A stretch of 64,000 bases of DNA from Antedon mediterranea. Taxonomy: Eukaryota; Animalia; Echinodermata. Where the stretch lies: contig NC_092674.1 of assembly GCF_964355755.1 (NCBI RefSeq), positions 21,886,001 to 21,950,000 of the forward strand. Reading direction: 5' to 3'. The position numbers and the translations under genes were made by a program. This document shows positions 36,301-39,300 of the stretch, one piece after another. Position 1 is the stretch's first letter, and every line of letters starts with the position of its first letter. The notes beneath the pieces were generated by a model, which saw only the letters and a list, made by a program, of their open reading frames with translations, made no database searches and was not told the DNA's origin.

Positions 36301-39300
36301 GGAATCCTCGTGTGCCGGGCACCTCCGCTCACCGGAGGGCTCGAGAATTCGATACGATACCCGTGTGTCACGGTGGAGAGAACCCATCTGTCTGTGGTCA
36401 GGGTCTCCCAAACCCGTGAAAACCGTTTCAAGCGACCCCCCACCTGCCCGCCCTCGCTTGGAGGGACGGGCGTCCCCGGGCCGTCACCGGCGCTTCACAT
36501 TATAATACCGGCGACCACTTCTGTTGGTGGCGCCTTTGCCACCCCTATTTCGCATTCCGCGAGGGGGGTGTGAAGCCTGTCTTGATGTAGAAGCCTGACT
36601 TTGCATAGGCTGAGCCGGTGGCGGCGGGGGAGGCTGCATCTGCTGAGGAGCAGCAGGGACAGGCGGCGGTCGTGCGGCTGTCCTTGAGCGTGAATTGCTA
36701 GCTCGGCGTTTTTGCGGGAAGCGCGCTCTTGTCTCCCGACGAGCTTCCCTCTCACGAGCCCATTTATCCTCCTTCTGTGAGAAGGAGCCAAAGAACAAGT
36801 CCTGCGCCCCGAAGGAGTCAGACGTAGTAAACCTACGGAAATCGGTCGGTGCGATGTCAGTTGCACCCAAGACGTTAACGCGACGGGCCGCGGCCGCAGA
36901 TAATGAGATCGTTGCCTGTTGATCAACAACCAGGCCCATGATCTGCTGTAGTAGAGCTATCACGTCCGAATCGCCCTGAGGCGGATGTTCTGGATCAGCC
37001 AGAAAGGATAGCAAGTACCCGGCCATAGAGGCGGCTCTAAGCGTCTCGCGTGCGGCCCTGTCGACGGACGTAAGGACATCCTCTGTCCGGGATTCCGAAG
37101 GCTTCAAAAAATTAGTCCTGGACGGGTCCAGGTTCTGGTCCTCACGGACCCGTTCCTTCGCTGCCTCCGGGACGCTCGGCGCCGCGATGTACAGTTCGAA
37201 TTGTTTCTGCGGCACCGGAAAAGCCGATGACAGGCTATAAGGCATAGGCCTACGAATCTTGGACTCCTTAGCGATCAGCTCCACACGTTCCACAAGTTCT
37301 GGATCGAGAGGCGTAACCGGGCACGAAGATACCTTCTTAAAGGGCGTGCGTACGCCAAAAGTGGAAAACCGCTTAGACGAAGGAGTATGCTTAGGCTCTC
37401 GATACGTGAAATCGACGCCGAGAAAGGACAGCACCGCGGGGACCGTCCGCATAACTAGCGCCTGCAGACCTTCCTCCCCTGGCCCGGCCTGCTCCCGTAA
37501 GCTATCTCTATCATCGTCAGAGAGCGAGGCCATCGTCCTGTCACTATCGTAATCCCTTTGCCGGACGGACGAACCATCGAAAAACGAGGTCTGCTGTGGG
37601 CCAACATCAATGTATGGAATATGGGGAGGAGGTCTAATCTGAGAGGGTACCTCAGGCTCATCCCTCGGCAGAGCTCTCACAGCTGCAACAATGGCTTGCA
37701 GTAACCCCGGAGAAATCTCATTCACCCCCGGAACCGCAGAGGCCGCAGCCGGTGCAGGCATATCTGGAAGGCTAACTTCCGGCGCGACGGCAGGAGGGCC
37801 TGCCGTATCGGCGGTACCCACCTCCGGAGGTGGTACAGCTTCCGTGCGCTCCTTAGGCTTAGGGAGCGATTTGAACTTGGACGGTGTCCAGCGGACACAA
37901 ACATCGCACGGCGACAACTCGGTACACGTGCGGCAATGTATGCACTCCAAGTGGCGGTCCCACTTCACGGTAGAGCGGGGACCCCTACATTTAACACACT
38001 CCTGCTTAGGCATGGTGATCTAACAGACCTACTTCTACCCACTAGCCTAACGAACAACAAAAGATCTTCCAGTATTTCTATCCAGGTGAAACACACTGGA
38101 TAACGGCTTACAACGCTAAATTTTAACTCCTGGCAACTAGCCAAGGGTAACGATTCTAAACGTATCCAACCACAAGATAACGATCTACTACACTTAGCTT
38201 CGTTTTCTTGCTCTATTCTTCTCTTCCAGTCTACAGTATAAAAGTCTTTATCGCAAATTCCTCAGGAATTCCAGGAATGTGTTCAGAAAAAGACGTACGT
38301 ACACAACGACGTTACGAAAAGAAATGATGACGATGATAAGTGGGTGTGTCTCACTTGAGGGCGTACTGGTGGCGGACTGATCCATTATCCGACGGGGGTG
38401 GGGAAAAATTAATGTTATTAATGTTCTTCTTTTCGTAATGTTTACCTCTCGTCGGAGAGAGAGGCTTATGTTGGTTTATCCAGGTAAGCTAGGCACGATA
38501 TAGACTAAGCATGTTTATTAAAGTAGAGCAAGCGAAAATAATGATGATGAAAATGGCATACAGTACTGATACTGTATTCAAGTCTTTGTCAACATGGGAA
38601 CTGAATTGAGAACCTGTAGATTAAGCAAGTCTTAACACAATGATGTTTTACTTTTAGAATACAGTTCATGAATGAAAATGTCAACATTGTATTCTATTCC
38701 ATGAGGCGTATACACAGTATTCAAACTACACTTCACAACAATAACATTTGATTTATACATGTGACCATATTCCTGAGATAAATTAATTCGTCTAAAAATT
38801 GTTCTAATTGAAGACAATAAAAACATCCAAATTACTGTAATACACTGTAAAATACTGTTTAAATAAAGTTATTAATGTTCATCAGTAACTGTTTTCTAAA
38901 TCAATTAATAACATTCATTTTTATTTTTCGAATTTTTCACTCAAATGAAATTAACTCAGTCATAGTCAACACACATTCTTCACCACATTTATGAAACGAA
39001 TAAAGTTGTAAAAACTGAATCAGAGAGGCACAGGATGAACTATCTCTGAACAGGAACTCTTTCTATGGTGGTTCAAAATGACACCACTGTTAGTTTTCTG
39101 AATCAAAAATTATTGTATAATGTATTACAACAAAGGTAGGCATTTTCAATACCGCCTGGTATTTCATGCACCATTGACTTCACAAATGCTTTGATAATAG
39201 AAATTTCTTGGGTACAATTTATGGTTCACTGGGTAAAATAAAAGTGAAAAGTCAGCCATACTTTACAGGAACAAATCATTTTTATTAACCAAACTAGACA

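Follow-up and report, generated by a model that had tools for sequence, protein, structure and literature searches.

Candidate readthrough and +1 frameshifting at the gag stop of a DIRS1-like retrotransposon from Antedon mediterranea and its relatives

In a DIRS1-like retrotransposon of the echinoderm Antedon mediterranea, a single UGA separates the gag-like reading frame from an in-phase tyrosine recombinase (YR) frame, and comparison with related elements indicates that a Gag-YR protein is quite probably made by readthrough of the gag stop. The reverse transcriptase (RT) frame lies at +1, and judging from motifs in the gag tails and stops of the relatives, we lean slightly towards +1 frameshifting as the source of Gag-RT in the DIRS family. 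The overall model for the Antedon element, which we regard as reasonably likely, combines termination, readthrough to Gag-YR and a +1 slip to RT; it builds on the anatomy of the element, a conserved gag/YR phase, a biased stop context and two stop-free frames. According to this model, ribosomes would likely stop at UGA-CGG most of the time to yield Gag, occasional readthrough would likely produce a Gag-recombinase fusion of 1489 aa, and a +1 slip would probably give access to the AUG-less RT frame. On the RNAs of relatives, the slip would take place either on UUU_CGN within the gag tail or on a shifty stop, for instance UCC_UGA, UUU_UGA, or CCC_UAG; in the Antedon family it would fall within the last three gag codons, the stop, or the following 40 nt, a stretch that contains no known shift motif.

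The Antedon element and its gag stop

The element spans positions 33139-38507 of the window (the whole 64,000-nt stretch of DNA analysed), reads on the minus strand, as do all features described below, and forms a GC-rich island amid AT-rich DNA. It is a DIRS1-like retrotransposon: it carries inverted terminal repeats (ITRs), an internal complementary region (ICR), and gag, RT/RNase H, and YR open reading frames (ORFs), with YR overlapping pol. The left ITR at the 5' end (38320-38507) includes a 170-nt arm (38320-38489) that is 100% complementary to 33178-33347 in the right ITR, which together with its extension (33139-33347) makes up the 3' end. The ICR (33383-33480) matches both ends of the element at 100%; its 55-nt arm (33383-33437) pairs with 33139-33193 and its 45-nt arm (33436-33480) pairs with 38463-38507, the two arms overlapping at 33436-33437. 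Contigs diverge into varied flanks at 38505-38508 on the left, a flank boundary lies at 33136 on the right, and contigs enter many different flanks at both ends. The main contigs of the family are at least 99% identical to the Antedon copy, and the element is apparently intact and multi-copy. Contig depth at the termini (33139-33500 and 38320-38507) is 10-30 times that of the interior, which suggests many elements or deletion derivatives sharing the ends. Just past the 3' end, short repeats, both direct and inverted, cluster at 31900-32770 and are possibly a small non-autonomous element, and two tandem arrays lie elsewhere in the window (55973-56500, 35 nt x 15; 60342-60671, 19 nt x 17).

The gag-like ORF1 (36484-38013, ATG at 38013) encodes 509 aa with an N-terminal Cys-rich motif and a basic, RG-rich tail; its position and tail are as in relatives, and a Pfam search with it returned no match. 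The pol frame (34461-36494, 677 codons, +1 relative to gag) contains VGGRL (36443-36429), RT (RVT_1, 6e-23), RNase H (RT_RNaseH, 0.004), and a C-terminal region that may be methyltransferase-like, judging from its DLFA and YAFPP motifs, for which a Pfam search found no match; no AUG precedes its conserved N-terminus. The YR frame (33544-36483, 979 codons) is in phase with gag and overlaps pol for about 650 codons before the tyrosine recombinase domain, which Pfam recognises as Phage_int_SAM (4e-4) and Phage_integrase (0.016), both under the curated cut-offs. Residues 640-979 share 75% identity with the YR of a crinoid DIRS element, the closest named YR relative.

The minus-strand sequence at 36500-36441 is as a previous sequence-only reading of this DNA gave it, and all of its coordinates agree with ours. 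One UGA (36486-36484), preceded by the sense codon CGG, parts gag from YR, so that a fusion would comprise 509 + 1 + 979 = 1489 aa. The UGA-CGG context assigns the stop to readthrough type II in the available text of PMC13517186; this type is recognised by UGA-CGG/CUA with an in-frame downstream ORF, and the Antedon element has both. A bulged 10-bp hairpin (36446-36471) is predicted to begin 12 nt past the stop, with a minimum free energy of -18.5 kcal/mol. The overlapping 5-bp hairpin that had been offered as an alternative exists in the sequence but is not the minimum free energy fold. The gag stop itself lies inside a predicted upstream stem (36514-36483). The RT frame, +1 as proposed, opens at 36494 behind a UGA (36495-36497) located three codons ahead of the gag stop, and its first AUG comes 57 codons after the V of VGGRL, close to the earlier estimate of about 55. 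At 36500-36495, 14 nt ahead of the gag stop, an AUG is directly followed by this UGA in the RT frame.

Across 36100-36900, the main family contigs (four runs, two samples) differ from the Antedon copy at one position, a synonymous change at 36520. Because the contigs of all four runs match this region, the gag stop, the unchanged +1-frame UGA, and the hairpin are features of the family rather than of one copy, and a private nonsense mutation in the Antedon copy is ruled out. Near the gag/YR junction, alignments reveal three or more diverged subfamilies; the loose-end letters of one subfamily contig hint that it may keep the 5' arm of the Antedon stem with a different loop.

Readthrough into the recombinase frame

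Relatives were gathered by RT alignment from the best 80 of 486 metagenome loci and from 16 loci on genome contigs, and the 61 retained share 42-50% RT identity with the Antedon element. The first set of 81 sequences was reduced to 72 with the VGGRL motif, 56 clean loci, and 45 representatives below 75% RT identity (9 motif-less sequences, 16 failing the clean filter, and 11 near-duplicates were dropped). The 16 failures comprised 2 at a contig edge, 4 with a short gag at a contig edge, 3 with gag broken upstream, 2 with YR interrupted, and 5 with gag in the RT frame; the filter required 300 open YR codons, the ground on which 2 loci were removed. Re-parsing and a second scan supplied 25 later loci (3 without a junction, 6 failing the filter), and the 16 clean ones retained were added without removing possible near-duplicates of the first 45. 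The elements are related to one another, so binomial p values overstate independence. The loci L081-L096 are DIRS elements on contigs of bacterial genome bins, probably eukaryotic contamination, and no relative was found among 22 pattern matches in viral contigs.

Of the 70 first-set junctions that could be read, the Antedon one included, 65 have the end of the gag tail and YR in the same phase and five do not. The gag stop is TGA in 46 and TAG in 15 of the 61 elements, and never TAA; the first 45 representatives (TGA 37, TAG 8, TAA 0) and the later 16 loci (9, 7, and 0) both lack TAA, and nearby stop triplets, taken as controls, are evenly split (391/387/381). True ends of the same elements are mostly TAA or TAG, with TGA at 4 of 35 RT and 1 of 28 YR ends. 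The nucleotide after TGA is C in 25 of 37 first-set stops (background 25%) and in 31 of 46 overall; CTA follows TGA in 11 of 37, compared to 3 of 391 control triplets, and G follows TAG in 11 of 15. Readthrough contexts of type II (UGA-CGG/CUA) and type III (UAG-G) are defined in the available text of PMC13517186, where the stimulatory structures of VEEV, CTFV, and MoMLV start at +12, and the gag-stop contexts of the relatives match these two types.

Beyond the stop, the YR frame is free of stops over 300-600 overlap codons in 44 of 45 elements, where synonymous shuffling of RT predicts 4.5-34 stops (the absence of YR-frame stops within the spacer itself is true by construction). Its first AUG lies 7-546 codons in, is more than 100 codons away or absent in 26 of 61, and is not conserved. 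Readthrough to Gag-YR is considered likely because the stop and its context are biased and the YR frame is open from the stop without a conserved AUG or splice site. The proposal of readthrough into the recombinase frame is thus well supported by the comparison of phase, stop identity, context, and open YR frame. Natural Gag-YR fusions were absent among the 31 YR matches listed (538-1714 aa).

Across the relatives the gag/YR phase is conserved and the stop context biased; the hairpin fold is not conserved. No other 26-nt window among the 4751 of the element is as stable as the Antedon hairpin, a window length chosen to fit it; compared with dinucleotide shuffles in context, the hairpin does not stand out (z 0.11, -0.06, and -1.77 for 44, 71, and 121 nt). 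In 17 of 61 cases a stem that begins 5-21 nt past the stop ranks in the top decile of its element (p 7e-5), and post-stop stems often pair the C-rich spacer with the VGG codons. No common fold was found across the relatives; the 60 nt after the stop have a mean z of -0.83, weaker than the preceding 60 nt (-1.35), which are the best-folding of ten windows across 45 elements. Native pairing is favoured at control junctions too (-0.5 to -1.9 vs -2.9 kcal/mol), and in one clade helix covariation amounted to a single compensatory pair, equalled by 134 of 500 shuffles. On the predicted folds, stimulation of readthrough by the hairpin is a little better than an even proposition.

Instead of readthrough, RT and/or YR could come from spliced or internally initiated subgenomic RNAs, the stop context being incidental, which we judge improbable. 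The sequence CAG|GTGGGG at 36443 of the Antedon element moderately resembles a splice donor and a site at 34558 resembles an acceptor, and acceptor and donor scores among the relatives are slightly above those of control windows (p 0.007 and 0.012). Three relatives (L025, L030, and L033) carry good donor-like sites that follow the gag stop by 7-16 nt and share one phase, and relatives such as these may use clade-specific splicing. The in-frame gag UGA of Tca2 reportedly proved not to be simple readthrough; in the available text of PMC2194720, this UGA with its 3' structure is posed as an open question. Against splicing, a donor score above 4 occurs in only 6 of 61 relatives (with an approximate donor matrix), and the CAG|GUG site (36444/36443) that had been raised as an alternative is not conserved. 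A conserved acceptor at the YR start was likewise not found: first-AG phases are spread 16/22/23, and no AG column among 49 intact RTs is conserved beyond Lys/Glu/Gln codons. The Antedon donor and acceptor are out of phase for joining YR to either gag or the RT frame, no joint at 36443/36444 appears among the contig joints listed, and the lack of stops in the spacer and over 600 overlap codons would not be maintained in an intron. A reading of TGAC as a branch point was rejected, as it would favour TAAC and TAA is absent. GUG at V, as a site of initiation, is likewise not conserved: the V codon is GTG in 25 of 61 relatives and is GTC, GTT, ATA, or another codon in 25 of 61.

Access to the reverse transcriptase frame

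Between the gag stop and VGGRL, 60 of 61 elements have no stop in the RT frame. Over the 61 spacers it holds 1 stop, compared to 37 in the third frame and 34 in shuffles; within the first 30 nt after the stop the counts are 0 and 13 for the RT and third frames. Only 4 of 61 have an AUG in the RT frame ahead of V and after the stop. Because the frame is stop-free over this stretch and usually AUG-less, RT translation likely begins at or before the gag stop.

The late opening of the RT frame, which had served as an argument for a shift at the stop, turned out to be peculiar to the Antedon family, where it stems from one Val-Lys codon pair; the median across 45 elements is 87 open codons upstream. 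Upstream of its UGA, the +1 frame of the Antedon element has a further open stretch of 153 codons (36956-36495), which gag-tail composition accounts for. The hydrophobic-poor composition of gag tails predicts the approximately 87 open codons, and long upstream openness was rejected as evidence for a shift site since it equals the synonymous null (87 vs 91 codons).

Two candidate +1 signals emerged among the relatives. In-frame UUU_CGN occurs in the gag tail 7-85 codons upstream of the stop in 26 of 61. TTT_CG is the most enriched in-frame 5-mer of gag tails (19 elements vs 9.5 expected) and accounts for 20 of the 30 Phe-Arg pairs in regions with an open +1 frame, compared to 14 of 37 in the gag body (p 0.027). 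UUU_CG is the core of the +1 frameshift motif of PA-X and PLEKHM2 in the available text of PMC11451614 and PMC5009743. The second signal is an antizyme-type last codon (UCC, UUU, CCC, GUU, or CUU), present in 19 of 61 relatives against a background of 10.9%; the set, the shifty-codon list in the available text of PMC1874602 plus CUU, was picked after the last codons had been seen. Elements without UUU_CGN end in such a codon in 18 of 35 cases, and both signals occur together in only 1 of 61. The mutual exclusivity of the two signals was not significant in the later 16 loci (p 0.48-1), and of five independent pairs on quick trees, 2.3 went the same way and 0.2 the opposite (median p 0.5). Changes on these trees are many, 17 and 10 for the two traits. 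Neither signal is present in 17 of the 61, the Antedon element among them: its gag tail lacks UUU_CGN and UUU_C, and CGG_UGA is not among the antizyme-type slippery codons in the available part of that list (PMC1874602).

At the family level the suggested +1 shift into RT has support, but UUU_CGN upstream of the stop, rather than the stop itself, is the most frequent candidate site, and a shifty stop fits 19 of 61. A strict version of the original idea, in which termination, readthrough, and the +1 shift all take place on the UGA at 36486-36484 under the control of the hairpin, appears unlikely to us. It would suit an RT frame that stays closed until three codons before the stop, a state fixed in the family, as well as the lack of UUU_C in the Antedon gag tail and the enrichment of shifty-stop codons in relatives; moreover, 63 nt (36439-36501) still align in a diverged subfamily with 6 differences, where the flanks have diverged. 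However, the claim that a ribosome can enter the RT frame only in the last gag codons did not hold: 40 nt separate the stop from VGGRL, and a ribosome that has read through could just as well change frame there, at CCC_GGG_G or CCC_UCC for instance. In some of the relatives, one site could plausibly set all three ratios.

Another explanation is that ribosomes terminate on gag and then reinitiate, independently of AUG, in either frame to produce free RT and YR; LINE-1 ORF2 is a known case of termination-reinitiation-like coupling. Both frames are open from the stop onward, and near-cognate ACG and GUG codons lie in the Antedon RT frame before and at V. Reinitiation, however, does not predict the absence of UAA, the CUA, CGG, and G contexts, or the upstream TTT_CG, and the V codon varies; we give this route only a small chance. 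Smaller still is the chance that readthrough is real but the Antedon family no longer expresses RT, its +1 frame being closed by the UGA at 36497, and depends on mobilisation in trans. In favour of this, the family lacks any known +1 signal, the organism harbours related subfamilies as well, and DIRS-1 RT can act in trans according to the available text of PMC7192593. Nevertheless, pol is an uninterrupted frame that retains its motifs, the main family contigs are at least 99% identical, and there is no upstream UUU_C site that the UGA could have cut off. Readthrough together with a +1 slip remains the model we prefer for the Antedon element.

Other arrangements exist among DIRS elements. In L031, L034, L048, L051, L066, and L068 (five families), gag is in frame with RT across one stop and YR lies in the -1 frame, opening shortly before; this speaks against the preferred model and is either a second natural arrangement or the result of single-base indels. 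L034 has an in-phase A_AAA_AAC heptamer at its gag/pol junction. Stop-less Gag-RT ORFs of 1195-1268 aa form multi-member clusters in other DIRS lineages (P0191, P0229, P0235, and P0245; gene caller unstated), which we count in favour of the model.

Known systems and significance

The Antedon element shares ITRs, an ICR, gag, pol, and a pol-overlapping YR with the Dictyostelium DIRS-1-type elements, and the available text of three papers on such elements (PMC3266345, PMC7192593, and PMC9210276) describes the overlap of DIRS1-like ORFs but no gag-YR phase, leaky stop, or shift signal. A published ORF-Finder survey, in its available part, records long overlaps in half of 28 elements, whereas measured from stop to stop they are present here in all clean loci. 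Within the available portions of a wider set of sources (PMC7192593, PMC3266345, PMC9210276, PMC3950715, PMC3783388, PMC6681497, PMC2685390, PMC5633606, PMC12440569, PMC4559204, PMC5009743, and bioRxiv 2021.04.08.439009), we found neither readthrough nor programmed frameshifting proposed for DIRS elements; the founding descriptions and reviews (Cappello, Goodwin, Poulter) fall outside this set and may mention the gag-YR phase.

Viral type II/III readthrough in alphaviruses, a coltivirus, and a gammaretrovirus (PMC13517186, available in part) shares the stop context and a structure at +12 with the Antedon junction, but the viral stimulators are extended stems of 78-177 nt and the Antedon hairpin has 26 nt. 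Viral readthrough yields a polymerase, whereas the product here would be a recombinase behind an overprinted linker of about 650 codons. Influenza PA-X, PLEKHM2, and amalgaviruses use YCC_UUU_CG in the available text of PMC11451614 and PMC5009743; UUU_CGN ahead of an open +1 frame is found in those 26 relatives but not in the Antedon element, and the YCC prefix is present at only 7 of 20 first-set sites and 0 of 7 later sites. The shifty stop of antizyme and prfB, as given in the available text of PMC1874602, is shared as a codon type by the 19 relatives, whereas Antedon has CGG_UGA; unlike antizyme and prfB, the same DIRS stop would need to be read through as well. DIRS1-like elements are a known family, and viruses or cellular genes already provide examples of each recoding mechanism; the use and combination of these mechanisms in DIRS elements appear undescribed.

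A broader picture, which we put forward as a tentative possibility, is that animal DIRS1 elements obtain three outputs (Gag, Gag-recombinase, and Gag-RT) from one mRNA, with repeated swaps between PA-X-type and antizyme-type signals, a single stop that is both read through and shifted in a third of families, and an undescribed +1 signal in the Antedon family. The DIRS literature examined, in its available portions, offers no explanation of how three overlapping ORFs are expressed from one RNA; the comparison names exact candidate sites, namely a leaky gag stop through which the recombinase would be reached and two alternative +1 signals that would lead to RT. Should this be true, a widespread order of animal transposons would join the users of readthrough and PA-X-type frameshifting, and both the AUG-less pol and the overprinted frame of 600 codons would be explained. 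Pol and YR would then be mis-annotated when started from internal AUGs, and these elements would provide natural cases of one stop codon with three outcomes.
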